Shown: piece by piece, positions 24,002-63,774 of the stretch
How the letters are laid out: each line of letters begins with the position of its first letter
Position numbering within the stretch: position 1 is the stretch's first letter
Origin: a virus
Lineage: Duplodnaviria; Caudoviricetes
Length of the DNA: 64,000 nucleotides
Virus record (IMG/VR): IMGVR_UViG_3300028591_000072
Location: 238,582 to 302,581 of that record
Reading direction: 5' to 3' (one strand)
Position numbers and translations under genes: made by a program
The notes under the pieces: model-generated
What the model saw: only the letters and a program-made list of their open reading frames with translations
What the model was told of the DNA's origin: nothing
Database searches by the model: none

Positions 24002-24085
24002 GGGGTTGTAACCGGTAATTGGTAGCCGAAAGGTCTGTAAAACCTTTCCCTTTTGGGACTGGTGGTTCGAGTCCACCCAACCCCA
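24002..24085 (+). tRNA. tRNA-Tyr(GTA)
   Basis: aaggt-ctgtaaa-acctt; long variable arm. Confidence 0.92.
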
Positions 24086-24166
24086 CGAATGTTCAGGTAG
24101 CGCCTGACTGAGTGCAGTTATACATCACGGGGAATCTGCACGAGAAAAAAACAAAAGGTCCGTCAA

Positions 24167-24452: not shown

Positions 24453-24543
24453 CAACTAAAATAACTAAATTGGTACAGATTAAAAAATAAAATTAAACGA
24501 CAATGATAAAACGAAAGTACATAAAACGAAAACATTTAAGTAG

Positions 24544-24616
24544 GCGCTCTTAGCTTAATTGGTAGAGCTACACACTCTTAATGTGGGGGTTGTGGGTTCG
24601 ATTCCCACAGGGCGCA
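24544..24616 (+). tRNA. tRNA-Lys(CTT)
   Basis: acaca-ctcttaa-tgtgg (27:43 mismatch). Confidence 0.9.
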
Positions 24617-24634
24617 CGAAAATAAAAACAAGAT

Positions 24635-24712
24635 GCGCTCGTAGCTCAGTTGGTAGATAGCACCACACTTTTAATGTGGGAGTCCTGGGTTCGAGTCCCA
24701 GCGGGCGCACCA
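24635..24712 (+). tRNA. tRNA-Lys(TTT)
   Basis: ccaca-cttttaa-tgtgg; encoded CCA. Confidence 0.93.
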
Positions 24713-26105: not shown

Positions 26106-26278
26106 ACTCCTATAGTTCAAGGGATAGAACGGAAGTTTCCTATACAAGAGTAAACTTGTTAAAATCAAAACTTCATGTTGGTGAAGATGGTCACACGTGC
26201 GTTAAAATGTCTACACGATGGTTCGAGTCCATCACATGAAGCAAACTTCTAATCTTGGTTCGAGTCCAAGTAGGAGTA
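26106..26278 (+). tRNA. tRNA-Arg(CCT) interrupted by a 101-nt insert (26143-26243) containing a nested tRNA-like fold
   Basis: Removing the insert restores gaagt-ttcctaa-acttc and a complete cloverleaf. Confidence 0.85.
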
Positions 26279-26819: not shown

Positions 26820-26941
26820 TGGGATGTGGTGTAATGGTAGCACACGTAGCACTTTATGATTTCAGACACGGAATTTTACAGCAATTATTTTAGCGATGAA
26901 TTTGGGTTTCCGTGGTTTTGGTTCGATTCCAGACATCCCGA
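26820..26941 (+). ncRNA. tRNA-Pro(TGG) body with a 51-nt CAGCAA-handle insert (26847-26897)
   Basis: Removing the insert restores cggaa-tttgggt-ttccg; insert holds gatttc-agacac-ggaatt-ttacagcaa. Confidence 0.75.
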
Positions 26942-27711: not shown

Positions 27712-27779
27712 GAAAACCTAACAGCAATTTTTAGTAAAAAATCAGAACTTTCACTTCCGACAATAACTAATGGTTTTCG
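27712..27779 (+). ncRNA. CAGCAA-handle RNA carrying a tRNA-Glu(TTC)-type anticodon stem-loop
   Basis: gaaaacc-taacagcaa ... tcagaa-ctttcac-ttccga ... ggttttc-g. Confidence 0.75.
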
Positions 27780-28698: not shown

Positions 28699-28786
28699 AG
28701 GAAACATGCAGCAATCTTTCTCAGGTTGAAAATTTTGACTGTAAATCAAATAAGGTGGTTCGAGTCCACAAAAATATTGTTTCCTG
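28699..28786 (+). ncRNA. CAGCAA-handle RNA carrying a Tyr(GTA) anticodon stem-loop and a T arm
   Basis: aggaaac-atgcagcaa ... tttga-ctgtaaa-tcaaa, gtgg-ttcgagt-ccac ... gtttcct-g. Confidence 0.78.
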
Positions 28787-28872: not shown

Positions 28873-29005
28873 AGAAATCTAACAGCAATTAATAAATTCG
28901 TTTGACTGTAAATCAAAAGGTTGTGGGTTCGAGTCCCGCTGTCGCCAAAGATTATATTAGTTGAAGGCGACATAGCTCAATGGTAGAGAAAGAAAATGAT
29001 TTCTG
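28873..29005 (+). ncRNA. CAGCAA-handle RNA enclosing a circularly permuted tRNA-Tyr(GTA)
   Basis: 3' part (28899-28947) precedes 5' part (28966-28988); acceptor ggcgaca/tgtcgcc; handle agaaatc-taacagcaa ... gatttct-g. Confidence 0.85.
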
Positions 29006-29035
29006 AGAAAAACAATGACGCTTAACCGTCAGAAC

Positions 29036-29188
29036 ATGTTTCTAAATTCATTAAAGATTTAGCGCACTTGTAGAGCGATAGGACTACACCTAAACCGAGG
29101 TGAGTGGTGAAGTACCGAGGAAGCTTTATTTGAAAGGTTACGAGCTCTTAAACAGATGATGGCATAGTTAAGAAGGTGCCATAAACAT
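29036..29188 (+). ncRNA. Unknown multi-hairpin RNA
   Basis: atgttt/aaacat closing stem; cacct/aggtg, atggcat/gtgccat, ctaaatt/gatttag. Confidence 0.5.
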
Positions 29189-29201
29189 TTCTTTTTAATA
29201 T

Positions 29202-29274
29202 GGGGGTATGGTTGAATGGCTACAATGCGGGCTTGTCACGCCCTGTGGTGCGGGTTCGAATCCCGTTATCCCCG
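29202..29274 (+). tRNA. tRNA-Asp(GTC)
   Basis: gggc-ttgtcac-gccc; G73. Confidence 0.9.
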
Positions 29275-29353
29275 CAATATTGGGGTTTCGAAAAAAAACG
29301 ATAAAATTGCGTATAATTTGGCTTTCGAAACTATTTATAATAAAACAAAGTTT

Positions 29354-30073
29354 ATGTGTGATGGTTTAAATTTTAAATGTAAACAGTGTGGCGTAACATT
29401 TGAAAAAACAAAGTCTGAGTTATCAAAAAACCATAATGTTGTTCCTGTCTTTTGTTCTAAAGACTGTCAACAAAAATGGTATAAAGAAAATTCGTATATA
29501 ACTGTAGAATGCAAATGTTGTGGAAAAGAATTTACAATAAAAAAAGGTGAATACAATAAAAATAAAAACAAAAACTTTTTTTGTTCACATTCTTGTGCTG
29601 CTAAATTTAATAATAAAACTAGAACAATAAAAAAAACTGTTTTTGAAAAAGATAACAAAATTAAAATATCTAAAAAGAAAGAAGATATATATGGTGTATG
29701 TCCAATTTGCGGAAATAAAAAATTTAAGAAATCAATATTGTGCAAAAAATGTAGAAACGAGCAAAAAAGAAATAACATAAAAAAGAGAACACTTGGATAT
29801 TTTATTGAAGGAAAAAAATATTTGGGTTCAAAATGTAATGAAATAAGAAAAGACGCAAAGAGAACAATTGAAGAAAGCTGTGTCGAAAAAACTTGTGCAT
29901 ATTGTCATAACCACGAGTTTGATGGCATATTAGAAGTACATCATATAAAAGGAATTTTGGAGTTTGATAAAAGCACGACAATAGAAGAAATAAATGATAT
30001 TAATAACCTTGTTTGGTTATGTCCAAATCATCACAGGATGCTTGAACTTGGATTAATTAAACTTGAAAAATAG
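29354..30073 (+). CDS. HNH homing endonuclease with zinc-finger repeats
   Basis: CxxC...FCS..C repeats; LEVHHI...NLVWLCPNHH; start moved to 29354 because the longer frame overlaps tRNA-Asp and ACTATTTAT lies at 29330. Confidence 0.85.
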   Translation: MCDGLNFKCKQCGVTFEKTKSELSKNHNVVPVFCSKDCQQKWYKENSYITVECKCCGKEFTIKKGEYNKNKNKNFFCSHSCAAKFNNKTRTIKKTVFEKDNKIKISKKKEDIYGVCPICGNKKFKKSILCKKCRNEQKRNNIKKRTLGYFIEGKKYLGSKCNEIRKDAKRTIEESCVEKTCAYCHNHEFDGILEVHHIKGILEFDKSTTIEEINDINNLVWLCPNHHRMLELGLIKLEK

Positions 30074-30415: not shown

Positions 30416-30650
30416 CGGTTTGTTGTTGATAATCAAAGGAAAGTTGAGTTGGACATGGGTTCGAGTCCCATATGGTCCACTAAGTAATTGATTTTCAAGT
30501 AAATACGGGCCATCTTGGTTTTGACAGCTAATGAGTACAATGGAAGTAGACATCCGAGATGCCATAAAATAACTGGCAACGAAAATTATGCTTATGCTTA
30601 TGCAGCAGCCTAAGGCAGTGCATTGAGCAGGTTGGCAGCGAACCAAATCG
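30416..30650 (+). ncRNA. ssrA: Circularly permuted (two-piece) tmRNA
   Basis: Acceptor piece gac-atggg-ttcgagt-cccat-atggtcc-a ends at 30479, before the coding piece gggccat-cttggttttgacag at 30507; G3:U70; tag ataact-GNENYAYAYAAA* (30575-30613). Confidence 0.9.
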
Positions 30651-31461: not shown

Positions 31462-31586
31462 GCCAAGGTAGCTCAGTGGTTTAGAGCAATGGGAGTGTAT
31501 AAATGATTTTTGATTAAAAATCTAACAGCAACTTCCAAATACCTATGTAAACCCATTGGTCGGAGGTTCGAATCCTTCTCTTGGCT
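31462..31586 (+). ncRNA. tRNA body (Thr-like acceptor, loop remnant tgtaaa) with the CAGCAA handle inserted in the anticodon loop
   Basis: Intact acceptor, D and T arms; atggg/cccat stem encloses gattttt-gatt-aaaaatc-taacagcaa. Confidence 0.78.
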
Positions 31587-31676: not shown

Positions 31677-31751
31677 GGAAAACATACAGCAAGTTTTATC
31701 AAATTCAAGTTACAATCTTTTAAATTGTGGGACTAAATTTTTTGTTTTCCG
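31677..31751 (+). ncRNA. CAGCAA-handle RNA carrying a tRNA-Lys(TTT) anticodon stem-loop
   Basis: ggaaaac-atacagcaa ... acaat-cttttaa-attgt ... gttttcc-g. Confidence 0.8.
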
Positions 31752-32557: not shown

Positions 32558-32615
32558 CGCTAATTTCGACTTTACTTTTTCACCCTTTTTACTATTTATG
32601 TATAAAAGTGGTTTT

Positions 32616-33290
32616 ATGAAAGAAAAAGAAATAGATAAAATAAGCGTGGAACAAATAAACGAAGCTTTTGAAAAGTGTGGTAATCTTAAAGAAGTTGTTT
32701 TTTATTTTGGAAAAAAATACAATGGCGGAAGTCAACGATTTGTATATGCTTTAATGGAAAAAGCCGGAATAAAGTATTCTGATTTTTTCAAAAAAGGGAA
32801 AGAGTATTATAAAAAAAATGTAAAGTATTGTGAAAATTGTGGAAAAGAATTGCCATATGAAAAAAGGAATAATAAATTTTGTTCTTCTTCTTGTGCAGCA
32901 TCTAAAAACAATCTTGGGGTAAGAAGAAACTTTAATCCAAATAAACCAATAATACAAACAAAAGAAGAAAAAGAAAGACTGAAGTTGGAAAGATGGAAGA
33001 ATGGAGAAAATTTTTTAGTTGGCTCTTGTGAAATACCAGTTTTTATAAGAAGATATTTGTTCAGTAAAAACGAATGTAAATGTGAGCGATGTGGGTGGGG
33101 TGAAATAAATGAGGACACAGGAAAAATTCCGTTGCAAATACATCACATAGATGGTGATTGCACAAACAACAAAGAAGAAAATTTACAACTACTTTGTCCA
33201 AATTGTCATAGTTTGACTAACACATTTGGTTCGTTGAACAAAAAGTCAAAAAGATTCCATAGAAAAAAGAAAACTTTAAAAGATATATAG
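32616..33290 (+). CDS. HNH homing endonuclease
   Basis: CENCG...FCSSSC; CERCG...LQIHHIDGD..NN..ENLQLLCPNCHS; start 32616 preferred because the 32598 ATG overlaps the promoter motif. Confidence 0.88.
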   Translation: MKEKEIDKISVEQINEAFEKCGNLKEVVFYFGKKYNGGSQRFVYALMEKAGIKYSDFFKKGKEYYKKNVKYCENCGKELPYEKRNNKFCSSSCAASKNNLGVRRNFNPNKPIIQTKEEKERLKLERWKNGENFLVGSCEIPVFIRRYLFSKNECKCERCGWGEINEDTGKIPLQIHHIDGDCTNNKEENLQLLCPNCHSLTNTFGSLNKKSKRFHRKKKTLKDI

Positions 33291-61896: not shown

Positions 61897-62461
61897 CTCT
61901 GTATTTTTTAAGTTCTTCTTTATATTCCACATCAAAAAAATGTCTCATTTTTGGGCATCTTCCATTATAGCATATTTCGCAATCGTGATGCCATCCTGAA
62001 GGAAGTGATGTCAAAGGAACTTTTTCTGTGCAAGAATTGCATGGATTATGCTCTTCGACCCATTTATCAAATGGTTTCATTCTTTCGATTTCTTGCTTTA
62101 TTCTTTCTTCTCTTTCGTCATTTTCCTTTATTATTCTTTCTCTTGTCTCCGCATTAAGTATGTGCTTTGGCGCAACACCCCACCATTTGCTTTCAAAGTG
62201 AAGATTCTTGAGGTCTAAGTTTCTTGTTTCGTCAGACGGTGCATTAATATAATCGCCATACTCAGTCATATATGAAATGATTTCGTATATATGAAACATA
62301 AGCCCCTCACTATCAATTTGCTCATATACTTCGCCATCTTTATTTTCAGCATGTACATCATACATTGGCTCACTATAGCCTACATTTGTTACTTCGATTT
62401 TTATGTTTCTATCATACCCGAATGAACACAATAAAAGGGTCAAAACATCTTTTCCGCTCAT
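61886..62461 (-). CDS. Hypothetical protein with Cys-rich C-terminus
   Basis: 191-aa ORF in operon. Confidence 0.65.
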   Translation of the reverse strand: MSGKDVLTLLLCSFGYDRNIKIEVTNVGYSEPMYDVHAENKDGEVYEQIDSEGLMFHIYEIISYMTEYGDYINAPSDETRNLDLKNLHFESKWWGVAPKHILNAETRERIIKENDEREERIKQEIERMKPFDKWVEEHNPCNSCTEKVPLTSLPSGWHHDCEICYNGRCPKMRHFFDVEYKEELKKYRDGK

Positions 62462-63774
62462 TTTACTACAATATTTTTTAGTTTAATGTCTTTAATAATT
62501 TCAACGCATTCGTCTCTTGTGATTTTTGGATTCATGAATGCACATTCAAGCAAATGGTCAATTATTGTTTTTACTTCTTTACATGGGCCAATACCACGGA
62601 TTTCCATAATATCATTACCGTTGACAGGGAGTTTGTATCCAATCATTTCCTCAATGTCAATTGTCTTGAGAAAATTAAAAACCCAACTTCCGTCTTTTAG
62701 TCTTGGGAATGATTTTGCAATTGCAACAATGTGGTTGAAGTCTTCAATCGTGTCGCATTCATAAGCAATCTCACGGATTTTGCTTCCAAGTTTCCACTTA
62801 CAAGCAAGTTCAAGCGGAAATGCTTTCATTGCATAGAAGTTGACTTTGTTGATAATATCGTTTGAGTACTTGAATTCCTTTAGGAACTTGTTTCTCTGCT
62901 TTCCTTCGCAATACCAATTTTGAACAAATGCGCCAAGAACAGTTTCAAGGTCGTAGTTGTATTTCTCAACAATCTCCAATACAGATTCAAATGCACCTTC
63001 TTTTGCAGCCTCATTTTTTTCTCCGTTTTCATAAGTGAACAGGTACGGTGTAATAGTATCGAAAAAGCCAATATCATTAAGATAACTCAATCCAATATAT
63101 GGATGTCCAGACATCAGAATCTTGTTGAATTCATCGGTGATTCGCTCTTGAGAAATGATTTTAAGGCGTTCAATGTTCCTTTTCATTGCCTCGAACACAT
63201 CATTGTCAATAAGGAAACCAAGTTTTGCTGAAAACCTTGCGGCTCTTAACAGTCTCAATGGGTCCTCATTGAATATTTCATCAGGAGAAGAACATGTGTT
63301 GATAAGTCCTTTTTCAAGGTCATCAAAGCCTCTACCAGTCAAGTCAAGGTCTTCATCCTTTGAAATGTTGTGGTACAATGAATTGATAGTAAAATCCCTA
63401 CGGAAACAATCGTCATTGATTGTTCCGAATGCTGTTTCAGGGTTACGGCTATTCTTGTCTCTATATGTTTCCTTTCTTGTGTGAACAGTTTCAATCTCTT
63501 CATCAGGAAACTCTTTGAGTTTGAACATGGCAGTACCGAAGTTCTCATATACAACTACAGAACCGTTTGTATAACCATTTGATTCAAGCCATTTTGCAAA
63601 ACGGATTCCACCATCCATAAGGTCAACAACAATGTCAATATCCTTGATTGCATCTGAGCCAAGATGTTTGTCTCGCTCACAACCTCCAACAGAATATACA
63701 TGGCCATCGAATTCAGTGCCATTGACAATGTTCTTGATATAATTTAATATTTCGTAATAAGTTTCAATTCTCAT
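62458..63774 (-). CDS. cca: CCA tRNA nucleotidyltransferase (class II)
   Basis: VGGCERD, DIDI, RRDFTINS, EDPLRLLRAARF, SQERITDEF; most tRNA genes here lack encoded CCA. Confidence 0.88.
   Translation of the reverse strand: MRIETYYEILNYIKNIVNGTEFDGHVYSVGGCERDKHLGSDAIKDIDIVVDLMDGGIRFAKWLESNGYTNGSVVVYENFGTAMFKLKEFPDEEIETVHTRKETYRDKNSRNPETAFGTINDDCFRRDFTINSLYHNISKDEDLDLTGRGFDDLEKGLINTCSSPDEIFNEDPLRLLRAARFSAKLGFLIDNDVFEAMKRNIERLKIISQERITDEFNKILMSGHPYIGLSYLNDIGFFDTITPYLFTYENGEKNEAAKEGAFESVLEIVEKYNYDLETVLGAFVQNWYCEGKQRNKFLKEFKYSNDIINKVNFYAMKAFPLELACKWKLGSKIREIAYECDTIEDFNHIVAIAKSFPRLKDGSWVFNFLKTIDIEEMIGYKLPVNGNDIMEIRGIGPCKEVKTIIDHLLECAFMNPKITRDECVEIIKDIKLKNIVVK

Follow-up and report, generated by a model that had tools for sequence, protein, structure and literature searches.

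Here we show that a 133-nucleotide (nt) unit, named E2 and located at positions 28873-29005 of the 64-kilobase (kb) window analysed here (positions 238,582 to 302,581 of IMG/VR record IMGVR_UViG_3300028591_000072), carries the two parts of a tRNA-Tyr(GUA) in swapped order within a conserved terminal stem, and that it belongs to a family of viral RNAs in which this stem, hereafter the handle, and an adjoining ACAGCAA motif accompany interchangeable cargo. The evidence is best accounted for if E2 is cargo carried on a scaffold RNA and not a tRNA gene. We give slightly better than an even chance to the reading that it is a non-decoding look-alike of tRNA-Tyr on a Y-RNA-like scaffold RNA, with a Ro60-like protein as the likely partner. 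The source of E2 is a giant (jumbo) gut phage, and the window is the last part of its 302,581-base-pair (bp) record (completeness 82% according to CheckV; GC content ~32%).

The tRNA 3′ part of E2 stands ahead of its 5′ part, the two being separated by an 18-nt spacer (Table 1). This arrangement had been proposed in an earlier reading made from the letters alone (hereafter the sequence-only reading), which placed the parts at 28899-28947 and 28966-28988, exactly where they lie. When joined, the halves fit with no base missing and none doubled, and ARAGORN reports the product as a 72-nt tRNA-Tyr(gta), so that the full cloverleaf with a perfect 7-bp acceptor stem described in that reading is borne out; G1-C72, A73 and a canonical anticodon loop are all retained. 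The variable loop, which had been called short, measures 5 nt (28918-22), and such a short loop is not typical of bacterial tRNA-Tyr. Equally correct were the phage context and the handle enclosing the unit, in which 28873-79 pair with 28998-29004 over 7 bp. Thermodynamic folding (z = -2.75) reproduces handle, T arm, sealed acceptor stem and D hairpin; the full permuted cloverleaf is 4-7 kcal/mol less stable than the minimum-energy fold. E2 has not been copied recently from a resident tRNA, its identity to any of them being at most 72%. Rfam searches of E2 at E<=10 returned only tRNA, YrlA and transfer-messenger RNA (tmRNA) echoes, and a small self-cleaving ribozyme or other catalogued RNA was discarded on that ground. 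A retron-like reading (AGC after the terminal stem) was likewise dropped, no reverse transcriptase having been found in the 302-kb record and conservation of the cargo being that of a folded RNA.

In its common form, UACAG(CAA), the handle-adjoining motif is the complement of CUGUA in the Tyr anticodon loop (28880-28888 versus 28906-28910). With AACAG, the variant present in E2, pairing to CUGUA extends to four of the five positions, and the minimum-energy fold uses that pairing and not the anticodon stem. This complementarity may be coincidental, because the loops of other cargo are not complementary to the motif.

Table 1. Parts of E2, related modules and selected genes of the record; positions refer to the window unless stated otherwise.
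Feature	Position	Strand	Evidence or remark
E2: handle, 5′ strand (AGAAATC)	28873..28879	+	pairs with 28998-29004; 100% paired in eight homologs, 3/7 pairs changed on both sides
E2: motif TA-ACAGCAA adjoining handle	28880..28888	+	kept in all homologs; fits Class I RNA pattern CTTACAGCAA
E2: 5′ linker (TTAATAAATT)	28889..28898	+	length and sequence vary between homologs
E2: tRNA 3′ part, whole	28899..28947	+	Rfam tRNA 27.7 bits (partial), ARAGORN, covariation
E2: C25-G26	28899-28900	+	
E2: anticodon arm, loop CTGTAAA	28901-28917	+	
E2: 5-nt variable loop	28918-28922	+	
E2: T arm	28923-28939	+	
E2: acceptor 3′ strand	28940-28946	+	
E2: discriminator A73	28947	+	
E2: 18-nt spacer loop sealing acceptor stem	28948..28965	+	6-20 nt in homologs, not conserved; CCA not encoded
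E2: tRNA 5′ part, whole	28966..28988	+	ARAGORN, covariation
E2: acceptor 5′ strand	28966-28972	+	followed by U8-A9
E2: D arm (D stem-loop) up to G24	28975-28988	+	
E2: 3′ linker (AAAGAAAAT)	28989..28997	+	varies between homologs
E2: handle, 3′ strand (GATTTCT), and closing G giving CUG	28998..29005	+	CUG end as in Class I RNAs
Module E1: handle, GCAGCAA, Tyr anticodon arm and T arm only	28699..28786	+	
Module E3: permuted tRNA-like cargo, loop AAACAAA	30080..30209	+	54.9 bits; ortholog L278 has loop AAGCAAA
68-nt module	27712..27779	+	
75-nt module, Lys(UUU)-type anticodon arm only (loop CTTTTAA)	31677..31751	+	
Two more modules	near 18 kb of the record	-	
tRNA-like frame with handle and ACAGCAA module nested mid-way	~26821..26940	+	read by eye
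tRNA with 58-nt anticodon-loop insert: tetraloop-closed handle and TAACAGCAA	31462..31586	+	Rfam tRNA 50.5 bits; missed by ARAGORN
Ordinary class-II tRNA-Tyr(GUA), loop CTGTAAA identical to that of E2	24002..24086	+	ARAGORN, Rfam tRNA
Phage tRNA nucleotidyltransferase (CCA-adding enzyme)	62458..63774	-	PHROG 2244, E 5e-50

The permuted tRNA-Tyr unit is real and conserved, not a chance arrangement of letters. A first covariance model, built from E2 itself, matched the paralog E3 and homologs in four related phages (48-68 bits), the related jumbo phages having been reached via a flanking protein, and a second model widened the family to G015, G021 and G024; homologs of the E2 fold are present in G001, G003, G004, G005, G015, G021 and G024. 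In an alignment of eight sequences from five phages, 96.3% of the cells pair, compared with 49-58% when the partners are slid; since the alignment was fitted to the covariance model, this slid-partner control is the fairer comparison. Changes on both sides are found in 21 of the 28 pairs, including all seven of the acceptor stem and three of the handle, and strong compensatory change is seen in all helices of the five phages (handle, anticodon arm, T arm, sealed acceptor and D hairpin). BLAST searches of deposited phages yielded ordinary tRNA matches only and no relatives of E2, and blastn-short with E1 and E2 against the collected loci yielded T-arm matches only.

Common to all members of the family is a module composed of a 7-bp handle, then N-N-ACAGCAA (U-A-ACAGCAA in E2), and a closing CUG. 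At least nine modules are present in this 302-kb record, and the loci examined together gave ~60 clean modules from many phage records, both related and unrelated, and from one giant-virus contig. On the latter, a contig labelled as a giant-virus metagenome-assembled genome (L229:5433-6182; IMGVR_UViG_GVMAG-M-3300020185-49), five modules with handle and ACAGCAA follow one another in tandem, so the module is also found in viruses of eukaryotes. With one and the same handle the cargo is interchangeable: it may carry Tyr, Cys, Lys, Thr or Pro loops or degenerate ones (some without U33), and it may be reduced to a tRNA body without an anticodon arm (the YrlA layout), to a bare anticodon arm or to almost nothing. 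Minimal modules that hold an anticodon arm only are most often of the Lys(UUU) (seven) or Tyr (four) type. In another phage, the tRNAs of which encode CCA, CCA also follows the acceptor strand of the permuted cargo. The handle stem is conserved and is probably the protein-binding part of these RNAs. Our literature search returned no paper describing an RNA family with this handle and ACAGCAA.

In the tRNA at 31462-31586, which hosts a handle module in its anticodon loop, the insert ends in the heptanucleotide ATGTAAA, which has the form of a Tyr-type loop, and the tRNA has U as its discriminator; the insert could be an intron or a permanent insertion. Two sets of candidate relatives were set aside. 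The permuted layouts returned by a strict script (T arm, acceptor, spacer, acceptor; 137 loci) are mostly neighbouring tRNA genes, and the AGTCAGG...CCTGACTACCA repeats taken as permuted in the unrelated phage loci L030, L038, L092 and L094 are actually whole tRNA-like genes in tandem, in which the acceptor, D and T arms are identical (AGTCAGGTGGCGGAAT...ACAGGTTCGAATCCTGTCCTGACTACCA) and the middle 50-60 nt are hypervariable.

Comparison of orthologs and of the maturation machinery bears on whether E2 could decode. Tyr-type permuted cargo was compared in four phages (this window, L145, L146 and L147), with break points read by eye, ARAGORN at a lax threshold being too permissive on the re-permuted orthologs. 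The anticodon loop CUGUAA is constant in all four, with covariation in the anticodon stem. Their acceptor stems are unrelated to one another, and pair 1-72 with position 73 reads G-C/A, U-A/G, U-A/A and, in the last case, U-A with a mismatch at 2-71 and an uncertain base at 73. In E2 the D stem needs both sides of the break to close, but in L145 it is completed inside the 5′ part, on one strand, and because its closure differs between orthologs there is no fixed joint to ligate. A GUA tRNA of normal topology is present in all four phages with Tyr-type cargo. The leader and trailer of E2 contain no bulge-helix-bulge: a plain 7-bp helix is found 19 and 9 nt off the junction, with no 3-4-3 pattern. 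Ligases of the RtcB, Rnl2 and Rnl1 types were not found in the 302-kb record, with the reservation that the Rnl1 control matched nowhere; splicing endonuclease was not searched for. Taken together, this evidence argues against both a circular maturation route and the conservation of a charging identity, and it is compatible with RNase P cleavage at 28966. Of the two possibilities held open by the sequence-only reading, a true permuted tRNA and a mimic, it is therefore the mimic that is favoured, by the cargo of the family, the drifting identity positions, the lack of a bulge-helix-bulge, the failure to find a ligase in the record and the ordinary GUA tRNAs, and the join at 24/25 given there is exact in E2 and not kept in the orthologs.

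Beside the permuted Tyr module of one relative (G003, L314:11322-11395), 6 nt downstream, lies a 74-nt tRNA of class-I type with a GUA anticodon and U37.

A candidate protein partner is encoded by relatives of this phage. G001, G002, G005 and G020 possess a protein of 460-600 amino acids with Pfam matches to DUF2828 and DUF7788 and a weak match to VWA_2; the 11 best PDB matches of its AlphaFold model are Ro60/TROVE chains, aligned over the full length (E 6e-7 to 5e-5). The module is linked to the gene for this protein. It occurs in minimal form in G001 and G005, where it stops 3 nt before the start codon of the DUF2828 gene, and in three copies within 0.5 kb upstream of the gene in G020. Among 43 DUF2828-family loci, collected independently, nine have a strict module that ends on the same strand within -260 to +80 nt of the gene start, in seven cases no more than 20 nt from it; no module was seen on the opposite strand and two were seen elsewhere in the ~800 kb of strand searched. 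Three of the four complete related genomes contain both the motif and a DUF2828(-like) open reading frame (ORF), and the fourth contains neither. A module at the gene start is the pattern that would be expected if the protein binds RNA, its own leader included. The neighbours of DUF2828 in the relatives are multi-copy collagen-like genes, which makes synteny around it uninformative. TROVE proteins with tRNA-like partners have been described in a few jumbo phages (Iyer et al.), and our search of the literature found no paper that gives a function for DUF2828.

Two groups of known RNAs resemble E2 in architecture. YrlA (RF02553) shares with it the order of T arm, sealed acceptor stem and D arm, as alignment of E2 to the Rfam consensus shows, and in both the RNA's own ends form a stem beside a conserved motif. 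In E2, unlike YrlA, the anticodon arm is complete, and the opening lies at the hinge between D and anticodon stems, not in the anticodon loop; the partner of YrlA is a ring-shaped protein of the Ro60 type (Ro60/Rsr), whereas the candidate partner of E2 is the DUF2828/DUF7788 protein, which is not a Pfam TROVE member. The second group comprises the Class I RNAs of Dictyostelium (RF01414; Aspegren 2004), which have in common with E2 a short terminal stem, an adjacent ...U.ACAGCAA motif and a variable remainder. They have been searched for with the pattern GTTGRC-CTTACAGCAA...GTCAAC-TG (PMC5054030), and are characterised by a terminal stem in which the 5′ G pairs with the C of a 3′ CUG(U) and by an 11-nt motif, CCTTACAGCAA, with near-invariant T3, C6, C9, A10 and A11 (Kjellin et al. 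2021, PMC7919456). E2 possesses such a stem (AGAAAUC...GAUUUCUG, in which the 5′ G and the C of CUG are partners), and its UCUAACAGCAA holds T3, C6, C9, A10 and A11. Class I RNAs are eukaryotic, reported from dictyostelids only, 42-65 nt long and devoid of tRNA-like cargo, in contrast to the 133 nt of E2, and their known binder is Rnp1A, a protein with an RNA-recognition motif. On the best reading, E2 is a variation on the Ro60/Y-RNA theme, and one that is unexpectedly connected to the Class I RNAs.

Several observations weigh against a non-decoding look-alike with a Ro60-like partner. The perfect 7-bp acceptor stem, A73, G1-C72 and the canonical anticodon loop exceed the needs of a mere mimic. 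The model of the DUF2828 protein is of moderate quality (predicted local distance difference test 66.5; template-modelling scores 0.37-0.43). No DUF2828 gene was found in this 82%-complete record by hidden Markov model or tblastn searches, nor a TROVE gene (PF05731; record G000); these absences are not decisive, because of the incompleteness of the record. E2 scores 26.8 bits with the YrlA model against a gathering threshold of 69, close to the 23 bits of two neighbouring ordinary tRNAs, which indicates a shared layout and not membership. The Ro-binding stem motif of YrlA, GNCGAAN0-1G (PMC4201824), is absent from 28873-29005, where the motif is ACAGCAA. Finally, RF01414 (threshold 41.5 bits) matches no module in the record at E<=10, even the 75-nt one.

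With these reservations, the following mechanism is proposed. A promoter and terminator scan for E2 gave no signal above chance, and we infer that the unit is transcribed together with the tRNA array in which it lies. Its 5′ end is 4-5 nt downstream of tRNA-Asn, so that it could be freed from the precursor by ordinary tRNA-end processing of its neighbours. The RNA would fold into the L shape of a tRNA with the acceptor end sealed by the 18-nt loop, and the chain would enter and exit at the hinge between the D and anticodon stems, its ends being clamped by the 7-bp handle and the single-stranded UAACAGCAA. By analogy with Ro60 and YrlA, the handle and motif would probably bind the Ro60-shaped DUF2828/vWA protein, and the tRNA-shaped cargo with its conserved Tyr anticodon loop might then tether proteins that recognise tRNA-Tyr or act as bait for them, examples being anticodon nucleases and enzymes that process or modify tRNA. 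If this is true, a second kind of Ro60/Y-RNA-like particle, so far uncatalogued, is present in giant gut phages, and its RNAs share one handle and display exchangeable parts of tRNA. E2 would be the most complete of these displays, with a whole tRNA-Tyr body and the anticodon arm, and would therefore be the best substrate for asking what purpose the tRNA-like part serves in Y-type RNAs. The shared handle would also tie RNAs of phages and of a giant virus to the Class I RNAs of Dictyostelium, the function of which has been open since 2004, and would name a candidate protein family for them.

A stand-alone bait or decoy overlaps with this proposal and differs from it solely in needing no Ro60-like partner: the tRNA-Tyr anticodon arm and body would sequester or divert a host enzyme acting on tRNA-Tyr, by attack or by modification (an anticodon nuclease or tRNA-guanine transglycosylase, for instance), the handle serving only as a stabilising clamp. 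Such a role would suit the CUGUAA loop, which is the only element of the cargo that all four Tyr-type orthologs preserve, as well as the minimal modules with anticodon arms only, mostly Lys(UUU) and Tyr, the four GUA-type arms of this phage and the failure to find a DUF2828 gene in the record. Many members of the family, however, have degenerate loops or no anticodon arm, the handle motif is conserved far more strongly than a clamp would require and is associated with the start of the DUF2828 gene, and no nuclease target is known for this host; we consider the bait unlikely, if worth keeping in view.

More speculative, and in our estimate quite unlikely, is an extended version of the scaffold reading, in which the amoebal Class I RNAs would have their viral equivalent in the handle with ACAGCAA, both kinds of RNA would have DUF2828 as their missing Ro60-like partner, and E2, within such a particle, would be cut by RNase P at 28966 and tailed with CCA after 28947, giving a handle-clamped two-piece tRNA-Tyr that is either charged or acts as a bait for host nucleases directed against tRNA-Tyr.

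That E2 is simply a working tRNA in two pieces appears improbable. RNase P would cleave at 28966, the 3′ tail would be trimmed after 28947 and CCA added by the phage enzyme, and the RNA would be charged and possibly decode, its pieces being held by the acceptor stem, the G10-C25 pair and the handle, much as in two-piece tmRNA. Mature two-piece tmRNA is held by base pairing after RNase P cleavage. Its model (RF04321) resembles E2 in gene order around the acceptor stem; unlike tmRNA, E2 has neither a tag reading frame nor pseudoknots, and it scores 11.9 bits against a threshold of 47. In favour of two pieces are the intact acceptor stem, A73 and G1-C72 of E2, the CCA-adding enzyme and a permuted tmRNA in the same array, the CCA that follows the acceptor strand of permuted cargo in the CCA-encoding phage, and the precedent of Mycobacterium smegmatis YrlA, which has a 7-bp acceptor and is cut by RNase P and tailed with CCA in vivo (Chen et al. 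2014, PMC4201824). The identity pair and the discriminator are nevertheless lost in orthologs, one acceptor stem is mismatched, a bulky helix would be left at the D/anticodon hinge, an ordinary tRNA-Tyr is at hand and the variable loop is unlike that of bacterial tRNA-Tyr.

Very improbable is a true permuted tRNA gene, from which leader and trailer would be removed, G24 ligated to C25 via a circle and the spacer excised, the route known from red algae and Thermofilum. The permuted tRNA genes of Cyanidioschyzon and other algae and of Thermofilum pendens do resemble E2 in their upstream 3′ half, short spacer and joined cloverleaf, and the halves of E2 fit exactly. The tRNA at 31462-31586, moreover, has a handle module in its anticodon loop, placed there much like an intron. 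Lak megaphages are reported to have unexplained, 'enigmatic' tRNA introns, which are short anticodon-loop inserts, including some in tRNA-Tyr(GTA) and some with tRNA-like parts (Devoto et al. 2019, PMC6784885), and they share with this phage the tRNA arrays with anticodon-loop inserts of gut jumbo phages. E2, unlike the Lak introns, is not an insert in a tRNA, and ACAGCAA is absent from the part of the Lak intron table that was examined. The algal and Thermofilum genes need a bulge-helix-bulge, a splicing endonuclease and a ligase; in E2 the bulge-helix-bulge is missing, the handle standing off the junction, no RtcB, Rnl1, Rnl2 or reverse transcriptase was found in the record, the break point is not fixed among orthologs, and the cargo of many modules could never form a tRNA.

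There is hardly any chance that E2 is functionless debris of two truncated tandem tRNA copies, for although tandem phage tRNAs with matching acceptor stems mimic its layout (covariance-model match at 24543-24665), this origin is contradicted by the compensatory changes across five phages, by flanks that form the conserved handle and are not relics of missing halves, and by the low identity of E2 to resident tRNAs.

The tRNA array that surrounds E2 extends over 23.6-33.6 kb of the window and contains 25 tRNAs according to ARAGORN; those neighbours of E2 that were inspected do not encode CCA. The permuted (two-piece) tmRNA of this array is located at 30421-30613 (Rfam RF04321, 65 bits), with the tag GNENYAYAYAAA* predicted by ARAGORN, and the tmRNAs of the relatives G004 and G005 are non-permuted (ARAGORN). 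At 26172-26242, ARAGORN lists a 'tRNA-???' with a two-base anticodon (aa), which reaches only 31.9 bits with the Rfam tRNA model. No tRNA with the anticodon CTA was listed by ARAGORN in this record; an amber-suppressor tRNA with this anticodon is present in the relatives G003 (L314:3180-3252), G005 (L315:16921-16993), G004 (L316:17155-17227) and G001 (L317:19521-19592). The ~195 nt that separate E2 from tRNA-Asp (29006-29201) hold neither an ORF nor a known RNA family. Two ORFs resembling HNH endonucleases are situated in the array, at 29216-30073 and 32598-33290, and the listed start of the first overlaps tRNA-Asp.
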